Virus record (IMG/VR): IMGVR_UViG_3300042505_001397
Length of the DNA stretch: 64,000 bases
Source of the DNA: an uncultured virus (IMG/VR IMGVR_UViG_3300042505_001397)
Taxonomy: Duplodnaviria; Heunggongvirae; Uroviricota; Caudoviricetes
Strand: one strand, 5' to 3'
The translations under genes were made by a program, and so were the position numbers. The notes beneath the pieces are model-generated. The model saw only the letters and a list, made by a program, of their open reading frames with translations. It did not search any database and had not been told where the DNA came from. Below, one piece after another: positions 3,606 to 52,669 of the stretch (its first letter is position 1; every line of letters starts with the position of its first letter).

Positions 3606-3621
3606 GGGTTAATTTAACGGG
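3606..3621 (-). promoter_or_regulatory. 16-bp repeated motif, candidate phage RNAP promoter (copy 1)
   Basis: CCCGTTAAATTAACCC, identical in 4 places at gene-block boundaries, always the same orientation. Confidence 0.7.
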
Positions 3622-3767
3622 CTTGATATAATAAATGGGTGTACAAATAATTATGGTGTAAATTTCAATGAGAGTGCAAATTCAGGGGCTCGTAGGTGCG
3701 TCGCCCCGGTACCCCATGACCATCGCATTGGCACACCTCACTCGTCTCATGTACACATGCTCTCGAC

Positions 3768-4214
3768 TCAAAAATCCACCAATTTTGTGACCATGTAACC
3801 ACGTCGATCCCAACCAGCTCTCTCCAGAATTTTGGCGAACACATACTTTTCATCCATGTGTGAGCCTGTTGAAATCACTCTTTTAATACCCATGGCCTTT
3901 GCAATGGGGAACATCTCATTGTGAAGCGACACAATCGCTCTTGCTGACTTGAAGCCCTTCAGTATAGATGCGTAGTATATCTGTTGAAGCACAAGTTCTG
4001 TATACTGAGGCATCTTAATTTTTCGCATCAGTAACCATGCAACTATTTCCCCATCTTCTTCAAGTATTTTCAATTTGGCGCCTGTGCCAAGATAGTCTTT
4101 CATACAAGTCAATGCATATTTCCTGTCTGAAGGTATGAAAGTCTCGTCGTTCAGACTTAAATAAAGATCCACACATTTTTCCATCTCTTTACTGGTTTGT
4201 ATATCTCTGATCAT
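3768..4214 (-). CDS. GNAT-like acetyltransferase
   Basis: MIRDI...ILEEDGEIVAW...AKAMGIKRV...LERAGW GNAT-like pattern. Confidence 0.55.
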   Translation of the reverse strand: MIRDIQTSKEMEKCVDLYLSLNDETFIPSDRKYALTCMKDYLGTGAKLKILEEDGEIVAWLLMRKIKMPQYTELVLQQIYYASILKGFKSARAIVSLHNEMFPIAKAMGIKRVISTGSHMDEKYVFAKILERAGWDRRGYMVTKLVDF

Positions 4215-4224
4215 GCTATTCTCC

Positions 4225-4255
4225 AAAATAAACCCTCACCATAAGATGAGGGTTT
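4225..4255 (-). terminator. intrinsic terminator after holin
   Basis: AAACCCTCA/TGAGGGTTT stem followed by a T-rich tract. Confidence 0.65.
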
Positions 4256-4258
4256 TTG

Positions 4259-4672
4259 TTACTTAGTTCTTTTTGTGTCCACTTGTTTCAATTTCTCAGC
4301 AGTTCGGTAAGCGCCTAACCCAAGTAATCCATACAGAATATTCTCTTGGGCAACTGTGTCAACAATTGGTAATGGAGGTAAATTGAAGCACAGAGCCAGC
4401 CAACTAAAAAATGAAACCAAAACGCCTGAATAGGCAAGTGTAAATACACCGACCCACATCGCAGCAGGTCTCGCACCAGCTACAAATATGCTTGGATGCT
4501 TGGCTTCTTCATTGTTGACCATTATTTGCTGTAGTTGTAACTGATAAGTATTATCAATTTCTCTTGCAGCTGCTTCGAGTTTTCCTTTTAACTCAGTGTC
4601 AGCATCTGGAAAAAACTTATCCAGACCCGTTTTTATCAAATCAAAACCGGCTGTGAAAGGGTCGAATGACAT
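4259..4672 (-). CDS. holin, 3TM (GTA-holin-like) family
   Basis: GARPAAMWV...TM...LYGLLGLGAYRTAEK signature. Confidence 0.75.
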   Translation of the reverse strand: MSFDPFTAGFDLIKTGLDKFFPDADTELKGKLEAAAREIDNTYQLQLQQIMVNNEEAKHPSIFVAGARPAAMWVGVFTLAYSGVLVSFFSWLALCFNLPPLPIVDTVAQENILYGLLGLGAYRTAEKLKQVDTKRTK

Positions 4673-4673
4673 A

Positions 4674-4937
4674 TTATTGCTCCGTTTGAGCTGCGTACAT
4701 CAATGTATCTTTTTCATCCGCTTTTGCCTTGCCGATTTTCTTACCTTCCTTAAAAGCCTTGTGCACAATGTTATTCAGTTGAATCTCAAAGTCGGCTTTT
4801 GCGGCCAATAATGCTTCTGCTTGAGATGTTGTGTCTGGATATACAGCAATTGCTGTGTCAACCAAGGTGTGGTACAACTTATCTGCAGCTTCTTCTTTTA
4901 CATACGCGGCATGTTTAATCTTAATTGGACTGGCCAT
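4674..4937 (-). CDS. hypothetical protein
   Basis: 87 aa, overlapping packing, AGGAG RBS. Confidence 0.65.
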   Translation of the reverse strand: MASPIKIKHAAYVKEEAADKLYHTLVDTAIAVYPDTTSQAEALLAAKADFEIQLNNIVHKAFKEGKKIGKAKADEKDTLMYAAQTEQ

Positions 4938-5298
4938 TAAAGCTCCTAAAATATTTCATGAAAGAATTAATCATGTCACGACCTTCTTTTGATTGTAAAA
5001 AGCCAGATGCGACACGATCAATTTTATCTACGTTTTTTGCGAGTAAGTCTTTATCATCTTGTGACAAACATTCACTGAGAGCTTGCATCAATGGAATCTC
5101 TCTCGGTTTAGAAAAGCCCCCCAATGAAGACAACTTCTTTTCAACCGCTTCATTGATCAAATCCTCAATACTTTTTTGAGGCACAATATTGCCTGTCGGT
5201 ATTGACTCAATTACTGGCGGTGTCAAAGGAGGGGCTATAGGTATATTTCTAATTCTATCCAATTCTCTTTGTAAATCTTCCACAGAAGGGCTTGACAT
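4921..5298 (-). CDS. hypothetical protein
   Basis: 125 aa, GGAG RBS, Pro-rich linker. Confidence 0.65.
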   Translation of the reverse strand: MSSPSVEDLQRELDRIRNIPIAPPLTPPVIESIPTGNIVPQKSIEDLINEAVEKKLSSLGGFSKPREIPLMQALSECLSQDDKDLLAKNVDKIDRVASGFLQSKEGRDMINSFMKYFRSFNGQSN

Positions 5299-5309
5299 AT
5301 TATCTCCGA

Positions 5310-5432
5310 TTAATCTTCTTTGTTTTCGTCTTCATTGCCATTTTCTTCCTGCTCTTCTTTTTCTTTTTCAGAGCAAGATGCATTGGCATCTTCATTATAA
5401 ATGACTACAGTGTCAGCATGGATGCAAATCAT
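5310..5432 (-). CDS. small acidic peptide (40 aa, not in ORF track)
   Basis: MICIHADTVVIYNEDANASCSEKEKEEQEENGNEDENKED*, GAGGA upstream. Confidence 0.45.
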   Translation of the reverse strand: MICIHADTVVIYNEDANASCSEKEKEEQEENGNEDENKED

Positions 5433-5444
5433 CAGATCATCCTC

Positions 5445-29224: not shown

Positions 29225-29322
29225 TGTTTTACCTTGAGTACGACTCGTTATGAGAAAAATACAATTTTTCTCTTGGAATTCATTTAGTATAATTTTGTAT
29301 TTAATTACAACTTCTATTATAC

Positions 29323-29338
29323 GGGTTAATTTAACGGG
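29323..29338 (-). promoter_or_regulatory. 16-bp repeated motif, candidate phage RNAP promoter (copy 2)
   Basis: CCCGTTAAATTAACCC just after the RNAP stop and upstream of scaffold/capsid. Confidence 0.7.
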
Positions 29339-29343
29339 TTTCG

Positions 29344-30775
29344 TTAACCTACTCCATACCATCCGTAATCATTTTTGAAATCTGAAGGAACTTCTTTTAC
29401 AATGTCTTCTTTCAAAAGAATATCAGACTCTTTAAGAACCTTTCCTCCGACAACAGATCTACCTGCAATCGGAATCAAACCAATGTCTATTGCTTCGTTC
29501 AGATATTGATCGTAAAGTTCTTGAGGCAAACCTCTTGCCCTCATTTCATCCAGAGTAGACACTATAACATTTCTGTCCAGTGTTTTTGCATAGATTTTTC
29601 TCAAAGCATTCCTAGCATTCAACATATCAGCTGCATTTGCAAAGAAAGCGTCATGAATAGTGCTCGTGGGAATGTTATTTTCCTTTCCCCATAGATGAAA
29701 ATTTTTAACAATTGTCGCGTCGTTAGAATGATTCCCGTTAACTGCAAAGGCAGTGCGCGCTCTTGTTGAATCGGCAATGTCATTTATTTTGCCGTCCTTA
29801 TTCATCATTTCTTCCCACCAAGTTAGTTCAGTCTTTTGAGGTACTTGCAATATATTGGTGGTCCACTCGCCTTGTTTATTCTTATAAAAAAGTCTTTCTT
29901 CAAATTGTTGTGTGAAATTTTGTTCGATCACTTTACCATCAAAATTAACCCAAGGAACATTTGTCCATGATTTAGGCATTTTATTAGCACTCAGTAATTC
30001 CACTTCAAACACATCTTGCTCTTGAATAAACTTACCTTTTAATAAATTAGAGGGTGTTGGTAATGCAGGCCTTAAGAAAGACAATTTAAAGTATTTACCA
30101 CCTGTACGTCTTGCTTCCGGTGTTGCTGTCCCATAAAGAATGTCATGTAGGTTACTATTTGGCTTATAAAAACTTAAGCGTTTCAAAGCTTTCTCACTTA
30201 AAGATTCTCCAGCTTTTAAGCCTAAAATTCTGCTAAGTGTATCTGGCAAAACATACCCTTTCTTTTTACTGCCAAACACTTTTTCTCTCACAATTGCATT
30301 CCAATTAAAAGCAGCTGTGGATGGTTTTGCATTATTCAGATAGTCTTCTGCAAGTCTACCAAAGAACTTCGTGAAGTCTTTTAAGATAGGTACTTGCTCT
30401 CTCAGATGTTCACTCATTATTTTTGCAATATCTTTAAAATCACCTGGAGTGACAATCCTTTCATAATTTAAAGAAAGTTTCTCCACAAGATCTTTTGTTT
30501 TAGGCTCCAAGAAATAAAGCTGATCTAGAATCTCGTCACCTGGATCTAACCCTTTATTAAAGATGTCTTTAACGTTTTCTCTAAGTGCTCTTAATTCATC
30601 CGCAGTCACTTGATCAAACTTATCGTACCTTGCAATACGAGCTGATATCTCATTGAGTACCGTTTCACGATCTGAAGCCTTAACAACTAACGTATCCTTG
30701 TCTTTGCCAAGAACCTTGGAGAGTTTACCCTCTACATTCAGTGTACCAGTCCTCTCACCAGCACCATAGAAAGTT
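29344..30775 (-). CDS. MuF-RNA polymerase fusion, exon 2 (end of motif B, motif C)
   Basis: frame open from A ACT TTC TAT GGT (TFYG) into the 421-aa ORF; AFAVNGNHSNDA and TIHDAF match T7 RNAP PNFVHSQDG and LIHDSF. Confidence 0.88.
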
Positions 30776-31401
30776 CATTTCATATAGGAATAGCCACTAT
30801 CACCGCGTTTTATGCGCTTGGTGATGGTCGAGTGATTAATGCCAAGCACTCTTCCAGCTTCTCTGGTAGATTCAAAATTACCAAAAGGTGTTATGACACC
30901 TTTTTTAAGATGATGTGCATTTCTACCATCTGCAATATCTCCGATTATTATTTCATCTTTCCAATAGTATCCTTTGTGTAAAGTACTTCTACTACCGGCT
31001 TTCTTTGATATTATTGCCTTACTAACTCCGTGTGCTTCTGCTGCAGCTGCAATAGTGGGAAATGACCCTAGAGGCGTTACGACACCTCTTGCAAGCAAGG
31101 AATTATTACCGCTCACAGCTTCTCTTGCCAGCTGATACATCACAGGTGACAGTCTTATACCATCTCTGCTGCACATTGTTGCATAAGCCGTTTTTAAGCC
31201 TCGTTCTTCTGGGAATAGCTTCATAAGCAACCAGTGCGCTAATAGATGGCATCTTGCATTTAAATATATCAGGTTTTCATAAGTGTCCTTACCACCTATA
31301 CATTTCGGAATTATATGATGTCTCTCATAATAACCGTTTATTGGCTTTGAAACACTACCGTGTTTCTCTATCAGATTTGTATATTGTTTTTCGTAATTCA
31401 T
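30775..31401 (-). CDS. intron-encoded HNH homing endonuclease with two NUMOD1/IENR1-like repeats
   Basis: ERHHIIPKCIGG...ENL..L..RCHLLAH; repeats VTPLGSFPTIAAAA and ITPFGNFESTREAG. Confidence 0.88.
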   Translation of the reverse strand: MNYEKQYTNLIEKHGSVSKPINGYYERHHIIPKCIGGKDTYENLIYLNARCHLLAHWLLMKLFPEERGLKTAYATMCSRDGIRLSPVMYQLAREAVSGNNSLLARGVVTPLGSFPTIAAAAEAHGVSKAIISKKAGSRSTLHKGYYWKDEIIIGDIADGRNAHHLKKGVITPFGNFESTREAGRVLGINHSTITKRIKRGDSGYSYMK

Positions 31402-31641
31402 TTTTATATTCCTATTGTATATATTACTATATAGATCAGACTATCTTTTACGTAAGCATCTTTTAAGAATAATACGTCACCGCGCTTCGAGATTGGCATA
31501 ATCTCTACAGACTTCATCAACTGTTCTAGTTGGTATGTCTTAGTCGTTGCACCTTCAAAAGAGTCCCCTCTTAAGCTTGGCTCAGGATTACCCTTTTGAG
31601 GGCTTCCCTGAATTCACGGTGTTTATACAAGGCAACTTTCT
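30776..31641 (-). mobile_element. group I intron (866 nt) in the RNA polymerase gene
   Basis: exon ends in U and intron ends in G; P1 with U-G pair; 8-bp P10 AGAAAGTT/AACTTTCT; core elements AATTCAGGGAA, AATCCTGAGC, GCAACGACTA, AAGATAGTC. Confidence 0.9.
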
Positions 31642-34600
31642 ACCATGTTTTGGGCTTTTGCAGCCTTTCTGAGGTCCTTCTCTGTAAGGCCCAGTTTCTC
31701 GTTGATCACTTTGAATCGCGGGTCGTTGAATGTCGAAGCTGCAATTTCATCATAAAGCCTACGCTTTTGATTTGTAGGTACAACATTAGATAACTCCGCG
31801 AGCTGTTTGTTACGAGTGGTCAACGCGATAATCTGAGCACCTGATGAAGAAGCATCTTGCTCTAGCGCCAATGAGATTTTATACTCTCTGAGCTTTTCCA
31901 AAGATGCTGCAGTATAGTTACCGCCTAAATAGTTATCAATCTTAGCTTGCTCTATGGCAAATCTGAAAAATTTACCCAGCTCTTCACCTTCAATCATATG
32001 CGTTATGTCAGCTTCAAGGATCGCTCTGATATCAGCAGGTTTCTTTGATAACATCAAATTACCAATTCTGACAATTTCAGGTCTCCACTTTTCAGCAACC
32101 TTTTGTCTTCCAGTGATTGTGAGTGAATTATATTTACCTTCAAACTCATCACTGAGACCACCTAAGAAAGCACCTATTTGATCTTGGAAATCTTTGAATT
32201 CTTCTGGACTGAAATTCTTTGCTTCTGCTGTATTGAGGAACGGTCTAAACGTCTCTCCAGATTGTGGTCCGATAAGACCTCTGTCATATATCCTTGCTCG
32301 ATGATCGATAAAAGGATGATTTGAAAAAGAGCGTCCATTAGCTCGTAACCACTGCATAGCTTTAAAGCGCTCATAAGCATCGCCACGAGATGCGATATAT
32401 TTTCGGTACTCATTACGCTCATCATAGAACTGAGCTTTTCCTCGATCATCTTTGAAGTAGAGTAATTTATCAATGAAATCATAAAAGTCTTCATCCACTT
32501 TGTATTTTGTCTTAGATGCCCATGTTAACGCATCCACCATATTCTTGTCAATAAACTCTTCAGGAAACTCACTAAAACTTGAAGATGATGTTATTGGAAT
32601 TCGTGTATCTTCCAAGCCCAATATACCTCTATCCATCCAATAAGTTTTATAACCTTCTCTGAACAGCAAACGATTATCATCTCTAGTGACGCTGACACGT
32701 AAACCCAAATCCACCTTACGATTCAATTGAGAATATTCTTGTATACGTGGATCTGTGACTCTTATATTATAAGCCATTGTGTCATAATATGGGCCAAAAT
32801 AAGCTCCACTCATGCGACTTTTCATTCTACGCTTTTGAACACCAAACGTTTCGACTTCAAAGAATTTGTCAACTTTTTTACTTTCAAGTATTTTCATGCC
32901 AAGATCAAACCACTGGCGTCTCCAACCATTTAAATTTGCCATGTTGTAAAGATCTCTGCCTAGCATTACAGCAAATTGATCCCTGTCTGGACTATCAGCC
33001 AAACTTAACCTGTGAGCAAATCTCAAATAAAATTGATGCAAGTCATCTTCAGATAATCTGCTTCTGATTTTAATTGGAATTTGAGGATCTAAAAATGTTC
33101 TTAATTCATTAGCGATCTTAGGAGCAACTTTATCTTCCCATTGATTTCTTGCTCTTATATTTTTATAAAAGTTATCGTGCAAATCATCAAGCTGAGTAGT
33201 ACCTAAGACAGGATCAATATAATTGTCTTGAAGTAACCGTTTCATCACATCTGTATCTTTTCGCAGTTGTGTTTCAATTGCATCAGAAACGTTCATCACA
33301 TCAAATTTTATTTGTGATTGAACAACGGCTTTAAAATTACCCCAGACTTCTTTATTATCACGATATCTGCCAAATACAATTCTCAAGTTATCTGCAATGA
33401 CGGCTCTTTCATTTACACTCATTGTGTCTGATAAATCGTTCACAAACTTGGTTATGAATTCCTTGTCTCTGTCCAAGAGCTTATCGCTATCTTTGATCAA
33501 TTGTAAGTTATTGTTGAGTACATAAGTGTTTGGCTGATAAAATCTAACGTCTTCATATCTACCTGTGGCGGGGTTGAATTTAATCTGATCTTCTCTCGGT
33601 GCAGAGGTTAGCATCCTATTTCTAGTAGCTTTCTTATTGTGAAGGAGAGTACCACGATAATTAGTATAGGAGAGTGTTCCTTCAAGCTCTTTAGTTTGTA
33701 ATATGTAGTAATCAAGTAATGTTTTCCTCAATTTATCATTCTGAATAAAATCATCCGGTGTGGTTGCCCATAACTGCATTGCATCTAATTTCGCCTTAGC
33801 GTTGGCAAACTTAATTGTGTCGCCATTTAACTCATAAGTGGAATCTGTTGCGGCTCTCAGTTGTTTAACGCCTAGACTCTCGCCCTTATAATTCACAAAT
33901 TGATCCACAGTCAGTTTACCTGTGTTCAAAAGATCAACCTTTTGATAATCACCTAAATGTTTAAGTTGAATATCTCTCGGTTGTCGCATGAGCCAATCAT
34001 TGTAGCTTTCTTTCAGTGGCGTTTGACCATCATAATAAGCAATTTGCTCTTTTGTTAAACCTTCTAAGTTTCTTCGTCTAACTTGAGCAACACCTTCTAG
34101 CTTAGAAATGTCATCCCAGGATTTAAAAACTGGAACTGTTGTGGAGCGGCAATTAAAGTGCGCAGGAGGCAGATGCCCCGTGTCCCCCATATCATAGACA
34201 TGCCCGTCGCGGTGCGCACACAGAGGTGTCGTCCTCGCGTCCAGAACGGCCACATACTGCCACCCTCTGAGTGCCTTTTCGTTGGCACGGTAAACAGCGT
34301 GGTCAACCTGAGCGTGGACGCTGGTGATTGCGGTGACTACCAAGGATCTAGACTGCATTCTGGTTATATTGTGAATGTTGCCTTTACGAATTTCCAAAGC
34401 AATTTCATTTGTTGTCTTACCTTCAGAAATACCTTTGCGAATTAAAGCTTCAATTCTTTTCTTTTCAGAAGTACTCACACCTGACCAACCAGAAGCAAGT
34501 GTTCTATTTTCAAACAAAGGTTTTTCAAGAACAATCTCTTCCGATATACGTCTTTGCGGTCTTTCTGTGCGCCATATCTTACCCATTGTTGTCTCAACAG

Positions 34601-34877
34601 TTTGATAAGCAAAAGATGCTTGATCTGCTGCAAAATCTAATAGGGAACGCTTTGATGTGTTATGAGCTTCACGATAAGTACGTAATAATTCCTTGTCCAA
34701 AGCGTCTTTGAATTTCTTTGATTTTAAGTCGGACGAACCTACCAACTTATCTAACCTAATAACGTGGCCATCAATGATTACTTCAATCTTATCATTGACA
34801 CCTTTCTCAAATAAGCGTATCATTGCCGCTCTGTCTAGTGCTTTGTCATATATTTCAGTATTTACATTAATGGCCAT
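31642..34877 (-). CDS. MuF (SPP1 gp7-like) domain fused to T7-type single-subunit RNA polymerase, exon 1
   Basis: MuF: YVAVLDARTTPLC..RDG..PPAHFNCRST; RNAP: DHRARIY..GPQ, motif A EQDASSSGAQ, motif B RKAAK. Confidence 0.88.
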
Positions 34878-38432: not shown

Positions 38433-38445
38433 TTTTAATTTCCTA

Positions 38446-40911: not shown

Positions 40912-40926
40912 AGATAGCCTCTTGAA

Positions 40927-41379: not shown

Positions 41380-41388
41380 TTAAAGTCC

Positions 41389-42339: not shown

Positions 42340-42346
42340 AATTCAC

Positions 42347-42943
42347 CTATACATCTGGTACTAATTCAGTTGGACTGAATTGCACTTCAACCATTCCTCT
42401 CACTGGTTTCCAAGTTTTTGTGAACACACTGTTCGTAGGCTCTGTGACTCTGAGTTCAAAGAAGCCGTAAGTATTTGAACCAATGGCAGGTTGAACAGAC
42501 CAAGTGGCTCCAAGTGTTTTTGGAAATTGAATATAAACTTTATTGAGTGTTGTTTCAAACCACAAAGGGTCTAAATCAGGTGTGGTGGAGTTAACTCTTG
42601 CGGCTCCACTGAGTAATTTATAATACTTGATGCCGTACTTGACAACCTCTTCTTGGTTATAAGCCTGGACAGCTTGCCATGTTCCTCTGTTTGTCGGTAT
42701 TCTTACCACAAGCTTTGTTTGAATTCCACCTGGCTTTATTGTGGTGGGCCTGTCTCCAGATAAAGCTATATTTAAAGCTTCCACAACAACGGCTTCATAT
42801 TGATAACCAAAAGTTGTCGCATCTTCAACGAAGTTGAGCAGCACAGGGAATTCTAGCTGTTCTCCTTGCACAAATGACCATAAGACACCACCTGAATCTG
42901 AAGTCAAATCATTTGAAGTGCTTGTCAATTGAGATCTAGCCAT
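42347..42943 (-). CDS. virion structural protein
   Basis: contains W...AY....VV.Y...YY carbohydrate-binding-like insert; TWKPVRG. Confidence 0.55.
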   Translation of the reverse strand: MARSQLTSTSNDLTSDSGGVLWSFVQGEQLEFPVLLNFVEDATTFGYQYEAVVVEALNIALSGDRPTTIKPGGIQTKLVVRIPTNRGTWQAVQAYNQEEVVKYGIKYYKLLSGAARVNSTTPDLDPLWFETTLNKVYIQFPKTLGATWSVQPAIGSNTYGFFELRVTEPTNSVFTKTWKPVRGMVEVQFSPTELVPDV

Positions 42944-43298
42944 TGAAGCCCTCCTTATCAACCTTACGATCAAGTTTGCTTTCTATGGAATCAAGCTTTT
43001 TAAAAATGGCCTCTCCAAGCTTCCCTACATCTTCTTTTTTTGCATATTTGTCAACTATTAAAAGCTCAAGATTTTCCAATTTTTCAAGTTTACTTAAAAT
43101 ACTTTTAAGTACGCTTTCCATTTCAGTTTTCTTTACGTAATCGCTTGTCATGGTAATCTCCATACTGCTTATTTTGGCGGTTGTTTCTTTATCCGCCTTT
43201 TGAAGATCTTTGAGACTAGACCATACTTCTTTAAGTAGCCAACCTCCAAAAAATGATACTATACCAAGAAGAATATTTATATATTCTTGTGTGGACAT
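42936..43298 (-). CDS. membrane-anchored coiled-coil protein
   Basis: N-terminal TM segment; duplicated Y(V/A)KK-x-E...KL(E/D) units. Confidence 0.6.
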   Translation of the reverse strand: MSTQEYINILLGIVSFFGGWLLKEVWSSLKDLQKADKETTAKISSMEITMTSDYVKKTEMESVLKSILSKLEKLENLELLIVDKYAKKEDVGKLGEAIFKKLDSIESKLDRKVDKEGFNG

Positions 43299-43310
43299 AA
43301 TATTCCCCCA

Positions 43311-44657: not shown

Positions 44658-44816
44658 CGAAATGATCCTCCACAAATTCACACGAAAACATTCTTTTATA
44701 TTCTCGTGGATCTCTAATAAGTGTCTTTGGAGGTTCCACTTTTGGAGGCCAAACAGTGTCTTCACTGTGTTCTTCCGACAACTCCTTTAATTCATGAAAC
44801 ATAGATTCTCTTCTTG

Positions 44817-45011
44817 TCATTCGATTGTTCCTATGTGATTTGGGTATTCAAAGAATTTGCTCTTTACACCATCATTATAAATTATGTGTAAGACCACACC
44901 TTGTGGCGTGTCATAATACACATACACATCATTTACAGATTTTTCTTTTCTGATTGTGGTCAAAAGATTTTCCACGAAAATTTTCTTAGAATCATGCATC
45001 AAAGTCTCCAT
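44817..45011 (-). CDS. hypothetical protein
   Basis: short ORF in the packed minus-strand run. Confidence 0.45.
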   Translation of the reverse strand: METLMHDSKKIFVENLLTTIRKEKSVNDVYVYYDTPQGVVLHIIYNDGVKSKFFEYPNHIGTIE

Positions 45012-45243
45012 TAAGCATTCTGTGTAAAAATGTGGTTATGTGATAACAAATTTGAGCTTTCTCAGCTGATGTGGACCAATACATATCCTTGCCATCTTTT
45101 GTCTTGGCAACAATCACAATGGATTTAACATTATCTTGTTGTTCCATCACAGCTTCAAGTATCTTTTTTGTTTCCACCAAACCTGAAGGTAAATGTCTAA
45201 TGTTTGAAGTCGTCATCATTGCCACCAAAATAGAAATACGCAC
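44992..45243 (-). CDS. hypothetical protein
   Basis: short ORF; true start probably the internal MMTT. Confidence 0.5.
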   Translation of the reverse strand: MRISILVAMMTTSNIRHLPSGLVETKKILEAVMEQQDNVKSIVIVAKTKDGKDMYWSTSAEKAQICYHITTFLHRMLNGDFDA

Positions 45244-45293
45244 CTAAGTAAAAACTTAGTGCAAATATAATATAAGACACAAATAACATATCA

Positions 45294-45743
45294 TCAATCT
45301 TCATAAAAATCACCTTCAATTACATCAAATGCATCATCATCTGGCTGCACCTCATTTACACAATATTGTTCACCTTTCTTTGTCAAATTGACAATCAAAG
45401 GCATAGGTGCTTTTTCAGATTGATCAATATTTTCTGGAACTCTGCCATATCCATATCTCAATAAAGCTTCACCTATTTTTATTCTCTTATCATAAAGAGC
45501 CATATGAGCTTCTGCCACATATGATCTTGCTTTTCCTGTGGAGGTTAAGGGCACAATCGTACCATCACGCCATCCTTCATAGTACACCAATTCTTCTTCC
45601 AATTTACGATATGTGGCAACAAGTTCACCAATAGGGTCAAACCCAAGTGTCTCCAGTCGTTTAACACTTCTTTTTCCACCCATCATGTAATTTGGCTTAC
45701 CCAGTTTACCACTCTTTGGTTGAGTGATTTGTTTATCAACCAT
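45294..45743 (-). CDS. putative terminase small subunit
   Basis: first gene of the block containing terL; FDPI..LV, LLRYGY..VPE. Confidence 0.55.
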   Translation of the reverse strand: MVDKQITQPKSGKLGKPNYMMGGKRSVKRLETLGFDPIGELVATYRKLEEELVYYEGWRDGTIVPLTSTGKARSYVAEAHMALYDKRIKIGEALLRYGYGRVPENIDQSEKAPMPLIVNLTKKGEQYCVNEVQPDDDAFDVIEGDFYED

Positions 45744-46042
45744 ACTAAAGTACCTTTAATTTCATCAACTTAACAAAAAGCACATCCCTCAGTACACCAT
45801 CATTACAAAGTGTCCTTCAAGGTTTAATTCGAAAACACTAACGATTGTAATTCAATCTCACTTTTGTCTGTTTTAAATGATTAATATCACTTATCATTAT
45901 CAATTAACAAACTTACTCAAATGAGATAAAAGAATCTGATGTACTAAAAGATATGCTCTAACTAATCTGTAACCCTGGCAAAGCCTAGGTATACCCTTAT
46001 TATTCAATCCATTCTCGGTGTTCCATTTCGGAGAAACACTTT

Positions 46043-46058
46043 GGGTTAATTTAACGGG
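46043..46058 (-). promoter_or_regulatory. 16-bp repeated motif, candidate phage RNAP promoter (copy 3)
   Basis: CCCGTTAAATTAACCC just downstream of a strong terminator and upstream of the packaging block. Confidence 0.7.
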
Positions 46059-46085
46059 TTTGTCATAACCTGAGTTGCCTCTCAG

Positions 46086-46145
46086 AAAAAAAAAAAAAAA
46101 ACTCTTCCCTCATGACCACCATAAAGGCAGCCACGAGGGAAGAGT
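46086..46145 (-). terminator. strong intrinsic terminator
   Basis: ACTCTTCCCTC/GAGGGAAGAGT 11-bp stem followed by about 15 T. Confidence 0.8.
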
Positions 46146-46152
46146 CAAAAGG

Positions 46153-46542
46153 TTATGGAATGATCAACTCGTCTTTATCAAGATCGATCGAAAATGTGGT
46201 AGAAGCTGTCCAAGAACTTCTCTGGCCAGTATAAAGCATCGGTACACCTTTGTCAGTGAGACCTGCAAAATGACAATTGTGAGATTCACCTGTCTTTTTA
46301 ATTCTCACTATCACTCTGTCATCCACTTTCAGATTGCTCCAAGGATTGAATTCAATTAAGTCATAACTAGTCTCTGAACAGTCATTAATAAAATCCCCTT
46401 TCAATGTCCAACGCTCTACATTCCATATACCGTCACGCCTAACTGCACCATGCACAGGATAACTGCCACCTCCATCCACACAATAGAGTCTCACAAGTTT
46501 CCCATCACGTGTTGTGTATGTTTTGTTCAAATCAATTATCAT
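46153..46542 (-). CDS. repeat-domain family protein
   Basis: KTYTTRDG...YDLIE domain plus WS..VD...HFAG...SSWT domain. Confidence 0.7.
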   Translation of the reverse strand: MIIDLNKTYTTRDGKLVRLYCVDGGGSYPVHGAVRRDGIWNVERWTLKGDFINDCSETSYDLIEFNPWSNLKVDDRVIVRIKKTGESHNCHFAGLTDKGVPMLYTGQRSSWTASTTFSIDLDKDELIIP

Positions 46543-46832
46543 TCTATAACTCCTTTAATTTCAACTCTGTTCAGTAACATAAATTCCTCTGGTCTGTCGG
46601 AAGCACACTCACGAAAATCTTCGTCGGAGATTTTGTCTGAGTTCTTCACTTCCAGCGGTTCATGAAACCTATTACCATTATTCAAGCTCACCAGCACAAT
46701 TGATTGATTATAAACTCTTGAAAGAATGTAAAGCTCTCTCTCGTTCCAATCATTTGTGTGCTGATAAATGTTACCAAATTTATGAACACTTTCTTTTTTC
46801 TTTTGTTCCACATTCACGATAACTTCAGTCAT
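46539..46832 (-). CDS. hypothetical protein
   Basis: start reassigned to MTEVIV with GGAG RBS. Confidence 0.6.
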   Translation of the reverse strand: MTEVIVNVEQKKKESVHKFGNIYQHTNDWNERELYILSRVYNQSIVLVSLNNGNRFHEPLEVKNSDKISDEDFRECASDRPEEFMLLNRVEIKGVIE

Positions 46833-47436
46833 TGATGATCTCCACATCCCACATTGAAAATTTGATCTCGGTTGTGCCACATTCTTGTGACCAACTCGTG
46901 GCTCCGTTGCTGAATATCCTGATGGCATTTTCTCTACCGACACCTGCAAAATATCTGAGATATGTAACACCGTTATTAGAAAGTTTCAGTTTGGTGTCCA
47001 CAGGGACTTTGCTCCAATCGGTCTCTTCAATCTCAACAAGATCAAACGAGGTCGGGTCACTCTCATCGTAATAAGAACCAGTGATGGTCCAACATATTGA
47101 AATCCAGTTACCTGTGGCGCGCTCCTTAATCGCACCCATGACGCAATGAGTTTGATCTGAAACTATTTCATAAAGTTTTGCTTCATCACCACCTTTCGTT
47201 TTATACTTCTTTCCAATTTCAATTTGCATCGCTGTGTCTTCCACTAAATCATAAGAGGAGTTAGTATCATTGTCAAAATATTTACCTTCTATTGTACAAC
47301 AACATTCCATCCACATTCCATAACTTGATAAATATTCAAATTTACCTGGATACTTTGTGTTTGGATTGTTAAGAGATAATAAATTTACTTTATGACCAGC
47401 TTTTGTTTTATATTTTTTACTCATGTCAAGAATCAT
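46825..47436 (-). CDS. repeat-domain family protein
   Basis: two KKYKTK.G...DLVE domains plus DWSKVPVDT...YFAG...GATSWS. Confidence 0.7.
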   Translation of the reverse strand: MILDMSKKYKTKAGHKVNLLSLNNPNTKYPGKFEYLSSYGMWMECCCTIEGKYFDNDTNSSYDLVEDTAMQIEIGKKYKTKGGDEAKLYEIVSDQTHCVMGAIKERATGNWISICWTITGSYYDESDPTSFDLVEIEETDWSKVPVDTKLKLSNNGVTYLRYFAGVGRENAIRIFSNGATSWSQECGTTEIKFSMWDVEIIND

Positions 47437-47867
47437 TTCTTTTCCTCTTTAGGCTCTTCCAAATATTTGTCAAGTTCTTTGTTCACGATCTGAATGACTT
47501 TGCCCGATATATTGCCTGACTCATCATAGATCCTATGAGCCAGCTCGGTGTCAGACAAACTTTGCACTATGTAAGCACCTGCCATCATGTATCCAGTTTT
47601 CTTTGAAGGTACGAGAAATACCATAAATATCATGGCCAACAAAATTAATAAACTACCAAAAATCTTTTTCTTACACCATTCAATTTTGGCTTTGTGTCTG
47701 TTAATCACTTCTTCTTTGTTGTAGGAGTCTGTGGCTTCCACAGCATTGTATATCCAATATCCACACAAGAATATTATCCAGAGTATCACGATAGATGATA
47801 TGTCATGCATCATGTCATGGAATCTTTCCAATGAATCTAACAGATAAATCAATAAAGCTAAGCTCAT
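47433..47867 (-). CDS. membrane protein
   Basis: multiple TM segments; PSKKT motif. Confidence 0.7.
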   Translation of the reverse strand: MSLALLIYLLDSLERFHDMMHDISSIVILWIIFLCGYWIYNAVEATDSYNKEEVINRHKAKIEWCKKKIFGSLLILLAMIFMVFLVPSKKTGYMMAGAYIVQSLSDTELAHRIYDESGNISGKVIQIVNKELDKYLEEPKEEKK

Positions 47868-49078
47868 TATTCACACTCCCAAATATATTTTGTCATATCG
47901 TCTAAAGAGACTGGCTCTGCAAACAACCACTCTCTGCCTGCTGTGTCTTTATAAATTGTGCCATCAAAACTCACCACAAAAGCCACATCGGTGTTACCAA
48001 ATGAATCATCCACATTACAAAGCACGCGCTTCTTGGTCTTGAACTCATGCCATTGAGGTGGTTCTTTGTATTTTTCATAAGCACTTACGTCAGAAAAACT
48101 GTTGGTCGTACCTTGCGGACCATACCCACTATCACCTTTAATTTCGCCCCCATCAAATGAATAAATTATTTTAGTATTTTTAGAAATGACTTTAAAGCCC
48201 TCCACCAGCCATTTCCATATCTCCCATTGAAAATCGAAGTCTCTTGCCATCTCATCCACATTGACCTCTTCCAGTGGTTCCGGAGCCAATCCGACGATGT
48301 CAGCCGTTGTCTCTTCATCATCAAAGACAAACCCTCCAAAAGCATGTGAATAATAATATCCATTATCGCCCTCAAGGTCTGTTTTCGAGCCACAATCATG
48401 TAACACCACAGTATCGCCAGATCTCATTAAATATTTCACGCCAACTTTCAATTTCACAACATCATACTCTGAAGGTTCAGGAGCCAATCCAACAATATCT
48501 CCTTCACTTTCTTCGTCATAAAACACAGAACCTCCGTAACCAAGAGTATAGATATAATCATTACTACCCATAAAAGAAAACCCGTTATCATTATGATCAA
48601 TTAAGGTTATTACTGAGCCACCTCTTGTTAAATATTTAACACCTACTTCCAGCTTTATACCAGAGTATTTTTCTCCAATATATTCTTCAATTAAGTCATG
48701 CTCCTCCTCTGAACTTGTGACCATCCATCTACCCTCTTCTGTCCAAGACCTGGTTATGCCTTCGGCTGTGCCTATAAATTTGTAAAGAGTTTCGGTCTCA
48801 TTGTCAAAAACCAATGGAGTTGTGACAAAACCACTTCTGGTTTTATAACGTTTGCCAGCTTTCAATTTAAAAGAGGCTTCACTCACGATGTTCCATTCGT
48901 GATCTCGTTGATCAGACCAATAATATCCGTTTGGAGTGTATGCAGATTCTTGATAATCCCCTGTGGCATCCCTGATTGTGCAATTGAATGCATAATGGTC
49001 TGTATTCTCTAAGAGAGAATCTACAGTCACAATGGCTCCATTAAGGGTGATATATTTTTTACCGATTTTTAATAACAT
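47867..49078 (-). CDS. repeat-domain family protein (4 copies)
   Basis: four L-x2-G-x-[KR]Y-x-[TM]-x2-G...[DN][IL][VI] units; start reassigned to MLLKIG. Confidence 0.7.
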   Translation of the reverse strand: MLLKIGKKYITLNGAIVTVDSLLENTDHYAFNCTIRDATGDYQESAYTPNGYYWSDQRDHEWNIVSEASFKLKAGKRYKTRSGFVTTPLVFDNETETLYKFIGTAEGITRSWTEEGRWMVTSSEEEHDLIEEYIGEKYSGIKLEVGVKYLTRGGSVITLIDHNDNGFSFMGSNDYIYTLGYGGSVFYDEESEGDIVGLAPEPSEYDVVKLKVGVKYLMRSGDTVVLHDCGSKTDLEGDNGYYYSHAFGGFVFDDEETTADIVGLAPEPLEEVNVDEMARDFDFQWEIWKWLVEGFKVISKNTKIIYSFDGGEIKGDSGYGPQGTTNSFSDVSAYEKYKEPPQWHEFKTKKRVLCNVDDSFGNTDVAFVVSFDGTIYKDTAGREWLFAEPVSLDDMTKYIWECE

Positions 49079-49079
49079 T

Positions 49080-49703
49080 TCATTTCTCCTTTCTATAGTT
49101 AAAAAATTGTTTAAGATGTTTCCAACCAGATTTCTCATAATACTCATCAAAGTCTTGAGCATGTCCAAAACTCCTACCTAACATGTCTACCTTTTTGAAA
49201 TAATAATTCAAAATTTCTCTCGAATCTTTCACATTTACCACATAACGAGTCTCTCCAAATTGTAATATAAAACGTTTCTTCTTGTAATCATTCAAATCCA
49301 ATTCCAGGGGATTGTCCGATTGAACAAAGGCAGCTGTTTTCAATGAATTCACCTTCGTCGCCAATGCCTGATAAAAAGCGACTTGCAATAAAGATTGTTG
49401 CAAATACCACTTCGGTGAATCTTTGGTGGCAATCTTATATTCAATGATTTCCAATGATTTGCCTTTGACTTTTATCTCATCAAACGTGAAATAAAGAGCT
49501 TTGTCATCGTTTCCTTGAAGTTTGCCTTGCATTTCATAATACTCAGACGTTGTCATTCTATCTGCAAAGTCTTGCCCTCTTTGCATCCACTCAGAAACCT
49601 CTTTCTTTGGAGAAAAGTTTGATTTACCGCCATTTTGCACCATGTTATATCGGTTGTGTTTGGCGGTCAATTTAACCAACAGCGCTGCAGAGTAAATTGT
49701 CAT
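49080..49703 (-). CDS. PD-(D/E)XK (Cas4/RecB-like) nuclease
   Basis: FTFDEI...IIEYK...QVAFY (D, ExK, QxxxY). Confidence 0.6.
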   Translation of the reverse strand: MTIYSAALLVKLTAKHNRYNMVQNGGKSNFSPKKEVSEWMQRGQDFADRMTTSEYYEMQGKLQGNDDKALYFTFDEIKVKGKSLEIIEYKIATKDSPKWYLQQSLLQVAFYQALATKVNSLKTAAFVQSDNPLELDLNDYKKKRFILQFGETRYVVNVKDSREILNYYFKKVDMLGRSFGHAQDFDEYYEKSGWKHLKQFFNYRKEK

Positions 49704-50104
49704 TGTTCATCCCCGAAATATAAGGCACAATAGTCTTTCAGCTTAGATAAAAATTTAGGTGAATTGGAAACTAATACATGCTTTTTATCACCGTATACTA
49801 TTGTAATAACCTTAGCTTCTACGAAAGCTTTGTGATTTTCTAATTGAACAACTAAATCGTTGAAATTCCAAAATAAAAGTGTGTGGAATGAATCAGAATC
49901 TTTTGCAAGATAGATGCCATCAATCACACCTTGCTTTGATGTGGTTTTTGGCTTACCCACAATGGTCAATTCACCCGTGGCCAAGTTGACCGCAAACTTA
50001 TCACCTCGATTAATTACTTCATGCACCATTGTGCTCTTGAACAAAGCTTTGGTCGGAGTGACCACCCAAAAGAATTTACCGTCTTTTTGCAAGATTTCTT
50101 TCAT
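49700..50104 (-). CDS. hypothetical protein
   Basis: 134 aa, ATGA overlaps. Confidence 0.65.
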   Translation of the reverse strand: MKEILQKDGKFFWVVTPTKALFKSTMVHEVINRGDKFAVNLATGELTIVGKPKTTSKQGVIDGIYLAKDSDSFHTLLFWNFNDLVVQLENHKAFVEAKVITIVYGDKKHVLVSNSPKFLSKLKDYCALYFGDEQ

Positions 50105-50337
50105 ACTAACTCCCCTATTCTAAGTCTTTTAGCGTTGGCATCTTGGTCAGTCACTTTAAATTTAACTTTGAATTCAGAATAGTTTCTTCCGTATTCAAGA
50201 AGCGTCTCAAGATCTTGATATATAACGATTGGATCTTTACCCTGGCCATTGTTGGCATTCCTTACTATATTCAAGACTTTATAAAGGTTGCCCGTTTTAA
50301 TGTTTTGATATTTCAATCCAGCGTATATGACGTTCAT
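50101..50337 (-). CDS. DUF1653-like small protein
   Basis: Y..IKTGNLYKVL...VIYQ...YGR...F pattern. Confidence 0.6.
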   Translation of the reverse strand: MNVIYAGLKYQNIKTGNLYKVLNIVRNANNGQGKDPIVIYQDLETLLEYGRNYSEFKVKFKVTDQDANAKRLRIGELV

Positions 50338-50338
50338 A

Positions 50339-50632
50339 TTAATGCACCTTTGTTTCACTTATTTCAAGCTTAATGATATTGCCCAGAGATTCTAACATCA
50401 ACTGAGCCAATTGACACTCCGTAGAGTGATACTGCATATTTTGCTCTCTGAGTTGCCAGACAGTTTGTAAAGCCAATGCAGTATCTTCCGATAAATTATG
50501 ATGTGTTATGATGGAGTCAAAAACTTGTTCCATCGCTTCAGGCTTTCTGTTATGAAACTTTTCCCACATTGTTTGAGGCCTTTCGAACACAAACCTAGAT
50601 CTCACCACCAGCATCAGTGTGTATTTTGGCAT
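50339..50632 (-). CDS. hypothetical protein
   Basis: 97 aa, AGGAG RBS. Confidence 0.6.
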   Translation of the reverse strand: MPKYTLMLVVRSRFVFERPQTMWEKFHNRKPEAMEQVFDSIITHHNLSEDTALALQTVWQLREQNMQYHSTECQLAQLMLESLGNIIKLEISETKVH

Positions 50633-50798
50633 TTAATCTTTTTCTCCTTTTTAAAATCTTGTTTAAATAATCTGCAGACGCAGCGTAATGAGCAGATTGC
50701 TTTCTGAATTTATCCACGGCAATTTGCAGCTCTTTGTCAGACAATGCGCTTGCTCTCAGAGCAAAATACTCTTTTTCTTTACTTGTGAGTGAACACAT
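50595..50798 (-). CDS. hypothetical protein
   Basis: 67 aa, GAGG RBS. Confidence 0.55.
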   Translation of the reverse strand: MCSLTSKEKEYFALRASALSDKELQIAVDKFRKQSAHYAASADYLNKILKRRKRLNAKIHTDAGGEI

Positions 50799-50807
50799 AT
50801 TAACCTC

Positions 50808-50848
50808 AAAATAAAACCGGACACAACCCTTTTGAGGTAATGTCCGGT
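50808..50848 (-). terminator. intrinsic terminator
   Basis: ACCGGACA/TGTCCGGT stem followed by TTTATTTT. Confidence 0.6.
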
Positions 50849-50855
50849 ATTTTAC

Positions 50856-51080
50856 TTATGCCAAGCGTCTTGCTTGTTCCCTTGCTGTGTTATATCCGTT
50901 TGGATATTCTTTCTTGGTGCCTTTGTGCGCATAGTTTCTGCCCAACACACTTGGACCTTTCTTTTTAGGTGGCTTTGCACCTTTCATGATGGTATTGATC
51001 ATGTGAGCCAGCATTTGATGGCCTGGATAATCTTTCATTAACCGCCCAATATTCTTGCACGCTGTGTTATACGAAATCAT
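50856..51080 (-). CDS. small basic protein
   Basis: 74-aa ORF in packed run. Confidence 0.55.
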   Translation of the reverse strand: MISYNTACKNIGRLMKDYPGHQMLAHMINTIMKGAKPPKKKGPSVLGRNYAHKGTKKEYPNGYNTAREQARRLA

Positions 51081-51258
51081 TTATTGTTCCCTCACTTTTT
51101 AAATAAACACTAATTACATCAGACTGCATATCATTTCCAACATATGCAGTAATATCCCCTACTTCTCCGTAAGTCTCTCCTTTTCCAGTTTCTTCTCTGA
51201 ACTTTGCATTTGGAAACTTATTTAAAATAGCTTGTTTCCATTCAGACACAGAGGTCAC
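51067..51258 (-). CDS. hypothetical protein
   Basis: 63-aa ORF in packed run. Confidence 0.5.
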   Translation of the reverse strand: MTSVSEWKQAILNKFPNAKFREETGKGETYGEVGDITAYVGNDMQSDVISVYLKSEGTINDFV

Positions 51259-51433
51259 ACTCTGTCTCCTTAATTAAAATGTCTTGAATTGCCATTGCTT
51301 CTTCATATTCTTCATTGTCCAGGTCATCTAAGTAACCGTTTTCAATTGAGAATTCCACTAAGCCTCTCAGCAGCATCAAATCTGTGGTCAAATCGACCAC
51401 GCCTTTGTCACTCGTAATTATTATTTCTTTCAT
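51242..51433 (-). CDS. small acidic protein
   Basis: 63-aa D/E-rich ORF. Confidence 0.55.
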   Translation of the reverse strand: MKEIIITSDKGVVDLTTDLMLLRGLVEFSIENGYLDDLDNEEYEEAMAIQDILIKETECDLCV

Positions 51434-51680
51434 TTTCCACCAACTTATTTCTTACTAAAGCCAATTTATCTTTACCTTTATACTCAATGACATCTTCCCT
51501 CACGTTGAAATCCTTCGTGAAATCCTTGCCGTCAAAGGCAGTGTAGAACTTGTAGTTCACAATACCTCTGATGATCGTGGCCATAGCGCTATGGCATCCT
51601 CTTGTCAACAGGAAGATTAAACTCACTCTTTGTTGGTTGTTCAACGGAAGCCTGTTGTTGATTAATGCTTGTAAGTTCAT
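51408..51680 (-). CDS. hypothetical protein
   Basis: start reassigned to MNLQAL. Confidence 0.55.
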   Translation of the reverse strand: MNLQALINNRLPLNNQQRVSLIFLLTRGCHSAMATIIRGIVNYKFYTAFDGKDFTKDFNVREDVIEYKGKDKLALVRNKLVENERNNNYE

Positions 51681-51800
51681 AATGTGCCTTTTCAGCGATG
51701 TCGTGACCAAATTGAATGCCGATGATAGCCACCAGCCATATGCATAACGAAATACTCAATACTCTTAAAAATAATAGCATACTCTTGGTTTTGAAAGTTG

Positions 51801-51832
51801 AAAAAAAGCCCCACAGAATTGATCCGTGGGGG
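51801..51832 (-). terminator. intrinsic terminator
   Basis: CCCCAC/GTGGGG stem followed by T7. Confidence 0.65.
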
Positions 51833-51900
51833 AAAAACAAAATACCATTGCATGATACGTAAAGGAGGAACGTTTAGATACAAGGATTTGTTTTATGTAG

Positions 51901-51927
51901 GAGCAGTTTTCTTGTCATGCTCAGGAC
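51901..51927 (-). ncRNA. candidate H-type pseudoknot RNA motif, copy 2
   Basis: GTC-CTGAGCAT-GAC-AAGAAAAC-TGCTC. Confidence 0.45.
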
Positions 51928-51973
51928 GTTCTTTGGATTAAGAGTGACACATGACCGAAGTCATAAATGATTC

Positions 51974-52543
51974 TTAATCTTCGTCTTCAACCGCGTGCTC
52001 TGCTTCTTTTGCAGCTTTTTCAGCCGCTTTCTTAGCACGATAAGCAGCTAAGCCTTCAGCCGCTGCAGGAGCCACTTGACGTTTTTCAACACCAGCTTCA
52101 TATGCTTCTAAAATAGCATCTTTGACTGTGATGACCCAAACTGCCAATTCTTCACTGCCGCCTTCAAGAGCTTGTAAAGAGTTACGGATTGCAAACTCTT
52201 TCTCAGCATCATTAATGCGTTTGACTGGTTTGTATTTGACGTCAATTTCAGGCCAGATTTCAATTAAGAATTCTGTGCCTTTAATTTTAGCTTCTTTGAT
52301 TGCTTCAATGGCTTTGGCAATTTTGGCCGCATCAGATTTTGTGATACGTCTCAGTGTGCCAGTGTCAAATGCGTTTTTGATCGCTTTTGAGTTGTCGATC
52401 AACCATGCTGTTAAGGTAGGATCTTTTGTCAAGGTGTCCAATGCCGCTTCAATTTTCGGTCTACGCATGTAAGACAAAGCTTCAGCTTTAGTTTCAAAAG
52501 TTGTACCGTCAGCAGCTTGGAATACTTGTTTTAATTCAGTCAT
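51974..52543 (-). CDS. hypothetical protein, first gene after the promoter motif
   Basis: 189 aa; F.A.DGT.FETK.EA N-terminus; A/K-rich tail; AAGG RBS. Confidence 0.75.
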   Translation of the reverse strand: MTELKQVFQAADGTTFETKAEALSYMRRPKIEAALDTLTKDPTLTAWLIDNSKAIKNAFDTGTLRRITKSDAAKIAKAIEAIKEAKIKGTEFLIEIWPEIDVKYKPVKRINDAEKEFAIRNSLQALEGGSEELAVWVITVKDAILEAYEAGVEKRQVAPAAAEGLAAYRAKKAAEKAAKEAEHAVEDED

Positions 52544-52653
52544 TTTAATTTTCCTTTTTGATAAAATTTAATGGCGATATTGCCAGTTTATATAATGTCG
52601 ATATAAGCATCGACCAGCTTGGAACTCGAACACTACGATCATTTTTCGTAATA

Positions 52654-52669
52654 GGGTTAATTTAACGGG
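52654..52669 (-). promoter_or_regulatory. 16-bp repeated motif, candidate phage RNAP promoter (copy 4)
   Basis: CCCGTTAAATTAACCC; overlaps the stop codon of ORF 52662-53021. Confidence 0.7.

Follow-up and report, generated by a model that had tools for sequence, protein, structure and literature searches.

The locus examined here raises the question of what a short motif repeated at the heads of phage gene blocks does and, should it be a promoter, which polymerase reads it. The DNA is a 64,000-nt stretch from an uncultured virus of the Caudoviricetes (IMG/VR record IMGVR_UViG_3300042505_001397), referred to in its full length as the window, and the motif, M1, is the 16-mer CCCGTTAAATTAACCC. 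The initial annotation had taken four copies of M1 for candidate promoters of a phage RNA polymerase (RNAP) fused to a MuF head protein, with a dimeric regulator site as the alternative. Comparison of the window with its relatives supports, at the level of sequence, the reading of M1 as the promoter of a phage-encoded polymerase and not as a dimeric regulator site. The assignment to the MuF-fused enzyme is probably wrong, because the family encodes a second T7-like polymerase (RNAP2), whose gene is placed by synteny just outside the window, and because a second motif class (M2) is found in the early region.

A search of the window allowing up to three mismatches returned M1 four times, without a single mismatch and always on the minus strand (Table 1); in contrast, 100 dinucleotide-preserving shuffles gave a mean of 0.38 matches and a maximum of 3, none reaching four. 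Essentially all genes of this siphophage lie on the same strand (open reading frame (ORF) listing together with PHROG and Pfam scans), and the number, positions and co-orientation of the motifs were thus as originally claimed. In the direction of transcription, the genes for exonuclease, primase/helicase, split ribonucleotide reductase, ligase and DHH phosphoesterase lead to M1 copy 4 and small accessory genes; these are followed by M1 copy 3, terminase, fibre-like genes, portal and the MuF-polymerase, then by M1 copy 2, scaffold, major capsid protein, tail genes, tape measure and fibres, and finally by holin, M1 copy 1, a Hydrolase_2/SleB-type gene (3025-3483) and small genes. The four blocks named in the initial annotation (SleB and small genes, scaffold-capsid, terminase, and accessory) therefore do stand behind the motifs. 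Copy 2 begins 5 nt past the stop codon of the MuF-polymerase, with the likely scaffold start ~87 nt further; copy 3 lies inside a 409-nt gap before the terminase block, and a terminator-like hairpin ends 27 nt upstream of it, giving a terminator-then-promoter arrangement; copy 4 overlaps the end of ORF 52662-53021, the stop codon of which is the TAA within the motif. By synteny, the block headed by copy 1 would run on into the RNAP2 gene. The finer details noted earlier were also recovered: the bases preceding copies 1-4 are AAG, AAA, AAA and AAG, AAGTGTT follows copies 1 and 3 one base past the motif, TATAAT follows copy 2 after a G, and the core is near-palindromic, with its inner 11 bases, GTTAAATTAAC, forming a perfect palindrome.

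The scan of relatives that had been proposed as a check on the motif revealed M1 to be letter-perfect across diverged phages and, in almost every case, co-oriented with the genes and intergenic. A search with the second exon of the MuF-polymerase yielded 167 related IMG/VR stretches, of which 80 were kept; the exact 16-mer was present in 59 of 81 loci, always on the strand of the polymerase gene, typically 5-750 nt past the MuF-polymerase stop and before the scaffold gene. This is the location of copy 2 in the window, a syntenic M1 position in nearly all relatives and one where tandem duplication is frequent, two copies often standing ~85-155 nt apart ahead of the scaffold/capsid genes. A scan of the whole collection found the exact 16-mer in at least 124 IMG/VR stretches, which are related lake-phage contigs. 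With up to two mismatches allowed, nine records that are 89-100% complete (G002-G010) contained 53 sites, 4-8 per genome, and 52 of these were co-oriented with the polymerase gene, a control pattern read backwards giving 0 matches; counting the four copies of the window, 56 of 57 sites have one orientation. In five full genomes and the window, 26 of 32 sites fell outside greedy longest-ORF calls, the other 6 lying at ORF edges or in doubtful ORFs, and 9 of the 32 were within 10 nt of an upstream stop codon.

A sequence logo built from 114 contexts less than 80% identical to each other extended the consensus to R-A-M-CCCGTTAAATTAACCC-W. Conservation reaches positions -3 to -1 upstream (A at -2 in 111 of 114 contexts) and the W downstream (T or A at position +16 in 99 of 114), with no information further out and without a conserved G start on the gene strand. 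The variants differ mostly within the central three bases (GTTGAATTAAC, GTTAACTTAAC and GTTAATTTAAC), and the palindrome is broken by natural variants such as GTTGAATTAAC and GTTTAATTATC. In EBPR siphovirus 1, whose MuF-polymerase is 58% identical, four M1 variants of the form NCCGTT-NNN-TTAMCCC occur on the gene strand, one of them at the syntenic spot before the capsid block. The 45 nt downstream of M1 were more stable than their own shuffles at 89 of 114 sites, compared with 55 of 114 on the upstream side; these structured flanks resemble the 5' stem-loops carried by T7-type transcripts. Most M1 copies are followed by such a structured leader, of which the near-palindrome cttccagtgcactgaagg, spotted by eye and beginning 9 nt past copy 1, is an example. 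The logo also settled the similarity to the T3 promoter put forward in the initial annotation: the 9-mer match to AATTAACCC is real, but the T3 geometry fails, as it calls for a conserved stretch in the 8 bases after CCC, which are almost devoid of information, and homology to the T3 promoter is ruled out. A few M1 sites are bracketed by an inverted repeat (for example GGAGGCAG ... CTGCCTCC).

The palindromic inner 11 bases would also fit a binding site for a phage or host regulator (activator, repressor or sigma-like factor) that controls the blocks without being the promoter itself. Consistent with such a site, ~34 of the 114 M1 contexts, about a third, carry a C-run at +24 to +30 and then a TATAAT-like hexamer at +29 to +36 counted from the motif start, a hexamer that would put M1 near -40 of a possible host-type promoter; TATAAT also stands behind copy 2. 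However, the feature is limited to a subclass of M1 sites that may be orthologous, M1 has no -35/-10 hexamer pair of the host sigma-70 type (spacing 16-18 bp), and a consensus scan of 20 kb of the window (44001-64000) showed no enrichment of sigma-70-like sites (57 found versus 57.6 expected). The flanks of the palindrome, CCC...CCC, form a direct repeat and not CCC...GGG, the R-A-M extension is on one side only, a single orientation is kept at all sites but one, and the variants in the central three bases, including those of EBPR siphovirus 1, break the symmetry. A regulator site is thus improbable. The same single orientation, direct CCC flanks and palindrome-breaking variants, together with the intergenic sites at block heads and the letter-perfect conservation, argue for M1 as a promoter, a reading further supported by the tandem copies ahead of the scaffold/capsid genes and by the position of copy 3 behind a strong terminator-like hairpin. 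M1 is near-invariant, present in several copies, co-oriented, intergenic and placed ahead of blocks, as are promoters of T7-family polymerases, and a cognate enzyme is available: the MuF-fused one is seen in the window, and RNAP2 is assigned to the window's own genome by synteny with G009. M1 accordingly behaves like a T7-family promoter but lacks the shape of the T7, T3 and SP6 promoters.

The MuF-fused candidate is encoded within the window by two ORFs, of which 31623-34877 carries the Phage_Mu_F domain and 29344-30609 matches Pfam RNA_pol. An uninterrupted homologue of 1545 residues (L009), in which roughly residues 800-1545 make up the polymerase part, aligned with its residues 1-1085 to positions 34877-31641 and with its residues 1086-1545 to positions 30774-29347, and the two ORFs are therefore parts of a single gene split by an 866-nt group I intron that contains an HNH homing-endonuclease ORF (Table 1). 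The intron splits the gene within its most conserved polymerase motif: the exon junction KAQNMV/TFYGAG is what we take to be motif B of T7 polymerase, and DASSSG and HDAFF are presumably its motifs A and C. Once the intron is removed, the catalytic motifs of this T7-family enzyme are intact. A PDB sequence search with the full MuF-polymerase homologue returned one weak, irrelevant match (E 0.0015), the protein being too diverged for phmmer. Four further homologues (L007, L011, L045 and L048) match residues 1-292 of exon 2 only, which suggests a further insertion site at that point. MuF proteins are located inside the head (PMC5512222).

A second single-subunit polymerase was found in all nine records that are 89-100% complete or deposited as complete (G002-G009 and the marine roseophage DSS3_VP1), each of which encodes both the MuF-fused polymerase and RNAP2 (~740 residues). 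RNAP2 was detected by PF00940 (E 1e-37 to 1e-82) in an open frame of ~735-785 residues or in a split one, and the 739-residue G002 protein matches T7 RNA polymerase with an E value of 2e-44, in an alignment that starts from about T7 residue 294. For the window, the evidence comes from G009, the closest relative fetched, in which exon 2 is 99% identical at the protein level and the DNA is 77-96% identical in aligned segments. Window positions 1091-1497 align to G009 44714-45121, and the RNAP2 gene of G009 occupies 42374-40001; given this synteny, the RNAP2 gene of the window genome is expected ~1-4 kb past the left end. G009 also carries a fifth M1 copy 1.9 kb after its RNAP2 gene, and by the same comparison the window genome would have both the enzyme and the fifth copy. 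The G009 gene (locus L230, 40001-42374) is interrupted, with frames of 183 and 357 residues flanking an ORF of 175 residues, and in G003 RNAP2 (71554-73603) is split over two frames; mobile insertions therefore seem to target the genes of both enzymes, MuF-polymerase and RNAP2.

In addition to M1, a single other 10-mer, GTATCTTATATG, emerged as common to the intergenic DNA of six genomes. It is the core of M2, which has the short consensus GCGGAAAA-N4-GTATCTTATATGA and, with flanks, AAWY-GCGGAAAA-N4-GTATCTTATATG-A (97 contexts less than 80% identical). M2 was found on the gene strand in 119 IMG/VR stretches; where a Shine-Dalgarno/start pair was found (42 of 97 contexts) the motif lay 13-42 nt ahead of it, and it often stood directly behind a hairpin and T-run. 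Two copies are present in the window. The first, with GCGCAAG in its upstream half versus GCGGAAA in the consensus, is found 113 nt past M1 copy 1, with the likely start of the SleB-type gene (AGGAGA-N7-ATG) ~35 nt further on; the second, GTATCTTATGTG, lies 22 nt before ORF 1890-2126.

We then compared the positions of the two motif classes with those of the two polymerase genes, revealing one order common to all five complete relatives that were mapped. M1 is followed by terminase, portal and MuF-polymerase; M1 again, in one or two copies, by scaffold, capsid, tape measure and fibres; M1 (absent in G006), then one to three copies of M2, by small genes and RNAP2; M1, 0.4-2.8 kb after RNAP2, by exonuclease, primase and ligase; and M1, accompanied by an M2 in G007 and G008, by accessory genes. 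The spacing of 0.4-2.8 kb between RNAP2 and the next M1, with M2 copies upstream of RNAP2, holds for these five genomes and G009. The early block of G006 contains M2 only.

The same gene order was observed in DSS3_VP1 (Naomviridae, NC_055826), a cultured phage that encodes a MuF-polymerase and an annotated RNA polymerase, with two motif classes in equivalent positions. Its proteins are 29% (MuF-polymerase) and 33% (RNAP2) identical to those of the lake clade. The late-class (class A) motif of DSS3_VP1, ATAGGGTGCGTTAAAGAGGGG, shares only the CGTTAAA core with M1 and occurs on the gene strand as 13 copies of a T7/Syn5-shaped ATAGGGTGCGTTAAA followed by GAGGGG; the stretch from 29.4 to 45.9 kb has no copy, and the first stands 1.3 kb past the annotated RNA polymerase (42436-44634). 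M2-like sequences (GGCATCTATAATGA) are present at 35808 and 36255, upstream of the RNA polymerase gene, and also at 67792. G006 and DSS3_VP1, the two genomes that have diverged most, lack the M1-type motif before RNAP2; it begins 0.4-1.3 kb after that gene, as T7 logic would have it for a promoter that RNAP2 reads. The DSS3_VP1 gene annotated 'head morphogenesis' (21242-25633; L228/L229) corresponds to a MuF-polymerase fusion of 1463 residues, with a PF00940 match of E 8e-9 within a frame of 1510 residues. A term search for 'RNA polymerase' in the main text of the paper describing this phage gave 0 occurrences (PMC8323127).

Taken together, this architecture leads us to lean towards M1 as the middle/late promoter of a phage single-subunit polymerase, with RNAP2 firing M1 and the injected MuF-polymerase firing M2, a scheme that we consider somewhat more probable than its competitors combined. 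The MuF-fused polymerase would be carried inside the head and enter the cell together with the DNA; it would then fire M2, clustered as one to three copies in the early block, to express the small early genes and RNAP2; and RNAP2 would in turn fire M1 to transcribe the replication, accessory, terminase/portal and scaffold/capsid/tail blocks. M1 would fire in the direction of the genes, and one copy also stands ahead of the early/lysis block. We infer from the genome maps that M1 and M2 are transcription starts, and likewise the start base, the pairing of each motif with its enzyme and the injection of the MuF fusion.

Several observations weigh against this scheme. The pattern of M1 only after RNAP2 fails in the lake clade, in which an M1 copy is present upstream of the early block and RNAP2. 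The MuF-polymerase and RNAP2 always co-occur, and therefore no genome separates them; Pelagibacter phage Kolga, which has a T7-like polymerase and an unfused MuF, was considered as a separating case, and its genome (30% G+C, bidirectional) yielded no repeated motif of either the M1 or the M2 class. The specificity-loop region of RNAP2, which is 13 residues longer than that of DSS3_VP1, varies among genomes with an identical M1 16-mer; reading promoter bases from this loop by the T7/T3 rules was abandoned, because the loop differs too much for a residue-level alignment. On the gene strand M1 lacks the G-rich start typical of T7-type promoters, and when M1 is aligned to the DSS3_VP1 and Syn5 motifs on CGTTAAA its +1 is a T, a base disfavoured by Syn5 polymerase (5% yield; PMC3950665). 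RNA data came from two small metatranscriptome runs with related sequence (9-12% of sampled words), as assembled contigs only; these derive from relatives 90-95% identical to the window and cannot show starts, ends or strand, one of them bridging M1 copy 2 (28461-29901) and another ending at 29250.

The last points to be weighed concern the direction of M1 and the identity of its reader. The reverse complement, GGGTTAATTTAAC followed by GGG, fits the GGG-N9-G shape about equally well, and the orientation of M1 therefore rests on gene logic and leader structure. M1 could also be a pause, termination or processing signal at transcript ends, or a promoter on the opposite strand for antisense or priming RNAs. 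Many copies abut an upstream stop codon (copies 2 and 4 in the window, and the 9 of 32 sites mentioned above), the GGG at the end of the reverse complement is the preferred T7-type start, and an ungapped comparison by hand shows the reverse complement to agree with the DSS3_VP1 motif in 10 of 16 positions. The abutment is uninformative, however, because the forward late-class motifs of DSS3_VP1 abut upstream stop codons too. A transcript-end signal would leave the late blocks without any promoter class, M1 and M2 being the only shared intergenic repeats; terminators in tandem would be senseless right before the genes with the highest expression; an intrinsic terminator already precedes copy 3; and the structured flank is on the gene-direction side. 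The chance that M1 marks transcript ends or antisense starts is consequently slim.

A pairing in which the MuF-fused virion polymerase reads M1 and so transcribes every block, leaving M2 to RNAP2 or the host enzyme, deserves more weight, although we still regard it as unlikely. The MuF-polymerase is a real T7-family enzyme with its catalytic motifs intact, M1 and the MuF-polymerase gene co-occur throughout the clade with an M1 copy directly after the gene, and the record of EBPR siphovirus 1 shows the MuF-polymerase only and yet has four M1 variants on the gene strand. This record is partial (54 kb), and the absence of RNAP2 from it therefore carries no weight. Moreover, the pairing would leave RNAP2 a few M2 sites in the early block, upstream of its own gene; the RNAP2 of G006 and DSS3_VP1 would be without a first source except read-through or the host enzyme; and transcription of the bulk capsid genes would fall to a few injected molecules.

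Table 1. Positions of the M1 and M2 copies, the split MuF-polymerase gene and neighbouring structures in the window.
Feature	Coordinates	Strand	Remarks
M1 copy 1	16-mer 3606-3621; with flanks 3605..3624	-	Conserved flanks R-A-M upstream, W downstream
M1 copy 2	16-mer 29323-29338; with flanks 29322..29341	-	Heads scaffold-capsid-tail block
M1 copy 3	16-mer 46043-46058; with flanks 46042..46061	-	Heads terminase-portal-MuF-polymerase block
M1 copy 4	16-mer 52654-52669; with flanks 52653..52672	-	Heads accessory small-gene block
M2 copy 1	3480..3504	-	Exact core GTATCTTATATG at 3481-3492, then A
M2 copy 2	2148..2172	-	Core 2149-2160 with 1 mismatch, GGAAA upstream
MuF-polymerase exon 1	31641..34877	-	Phage_Mu_F head-morphogenesis domain and N-terminal part of divergent T7-family polymerase; ends KAQNMV
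Group I intron	30775..31640	-	Rfam RF00028 match at 31417-31714, 64.6 bits
HNH homing-endonuclease ORF	30775-31401	-	Inside group I intron
MuF-polymerase exon 2	29344..30774	-	Begins TFYGAGERTG; Pfam RNA_pol above cut-off; HDAFF motif
Intrinsic-terminator-like hairpin	46086..46145	-	20 pairs and a run of ~15 T
Near-palindrome/hairpin	3580..3597	-	Downstream of M1 copy 1

Other features of the window were noted alongside. The product of the 3251-residue ORF (14306-24061, minus strand) is not a polymerase; it is the tape measure protein, matched by tape-measure families at its two ends only, and its size implies a very long tail. The ribonucleotide reductase is encoded by two ORFs on the minus strand, 59538-60608 (N-terminal part) and 57857-58747 (C-terminal part), between which lies a LAGLIDADG homing-endonuclease ORF (58840-59460); no Rfam intron reached the gathering score within this region (57857-60608). 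At the left edge, a run of ~25 A on the plus strand (55-80; T on the gene strand) directly downstream of ORF 111-308 in the gene direction may be the tail of a terminator or stem from the assembly. A megablast search of window positions 28000-47000 against GenBank phages gave no match.

Should the scheme hold, two uncharacterised T7-family polymerases of abundant, largely uncultured lake phages and their marine relatives would have M1 and M2 as their cognate promoters, providing two new orthogonal polymerase-promoter pairs as candidates for in vitro transcription and a new route by which a polymerase reaches the cell. A promoter of unusual shape would then be usable by a T7-like enzyme whose N-terminal domain is shortened and whose specificity loop is lengthened. 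In its widest form, that freshwater and marine siphophages including the Naomviridae run a fully host-independent cascade from injected MuF-polymerase through M2 to a truncated T7-like polymerase and M1, the proposal is plausible, though we hold it tentatively and with slightly less than even confidence; it would make M1 an unusual, short promoter that has no G start, whose core is palindromic and whose central triplet is free, and it offers a model, open to testing, in which a siphovirus supplies a head-protein-fused polymerase of its own and never needs the host enzyme. Neither M1 nor M2, nor any MuF-polymerase fusion, was found in the literature searched, supplements and subscription-only papers lying outside the reach of that search.

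Among known systems, the promoters of T7, T3 and SP6 (Autographiviridae) are similar in layout: a near-invariant motif of ~16-20 bp in few copies, co-oriented, ahead of middle and late blocks, with the first copy just downstream of the polymerase gene, a structured leader following it and a T7 homologue encoded. In contrast, M1 has no conserved G-rich start, its central three bases are variable and its core is palindromic; RNAP2 is ~140 residues shorter at the N-terminus than T7 polymerase; and the phage here is a siphovirus with a second, virion-type polymerase. Coliphage N4 injects a virion polymerase of the T7 family, which acts at a few early promoters grouped together; later genes are served by another phage-encoded enzyme (RNAPII), and late genes use the host enzyme. 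The N4 virion polymerase is, however, a stand-alone protein of 3500 residues whose promoters are DNA hairpins with a stem of 5-7 bp and a 3-nt loop, whereas the virion enzyme here is fused to a MuF head protein and nothing indicates use of the host enzyme. M1 differs from the N4 type of promoter as well: GTTA/TAAC could form a 4-bp, A/T-rich stem at most, with one G-C pair and broken by variants, and M1 copies are spread over all blocks.

The promoter of the marine T7-like cyanophage Syn5 is reported to be the 15-bp ATTGGGCACCCGTAA with a +1 G (PMC3950665). It contains CCCGTAA, close to the CCCGTTAA of M1, a relationship by resemblance only. The class A motif of DSS3_VP1 (ATAGGGTGCGTTAAA then G) has the length of the Syn5 promoter and its AT-GGG...AA frame followed by G, whereas M1 lacks both the upstream ATTGGG part and the G start. 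Thermus phage P23-45 provides a further parallel: its earliest genes, one of which encodes a second polymerase that is not part of the virion, are reported to be transcribed by a virion polymerase in fusion with the tape measure protein (PMC10770324). The P23-45 enzymes are related to multisubunit cellular polymerases; here, in contrast, both enzymes are of the T7 family and the fusion partner is MuF. Two-polymerase cascades are thus already known from N4 and P23-45, and what appears to be new in the lake phages and DSS3_VP1 is a MuF-fused T7-family enzyme with a proposed promoter class of its own.

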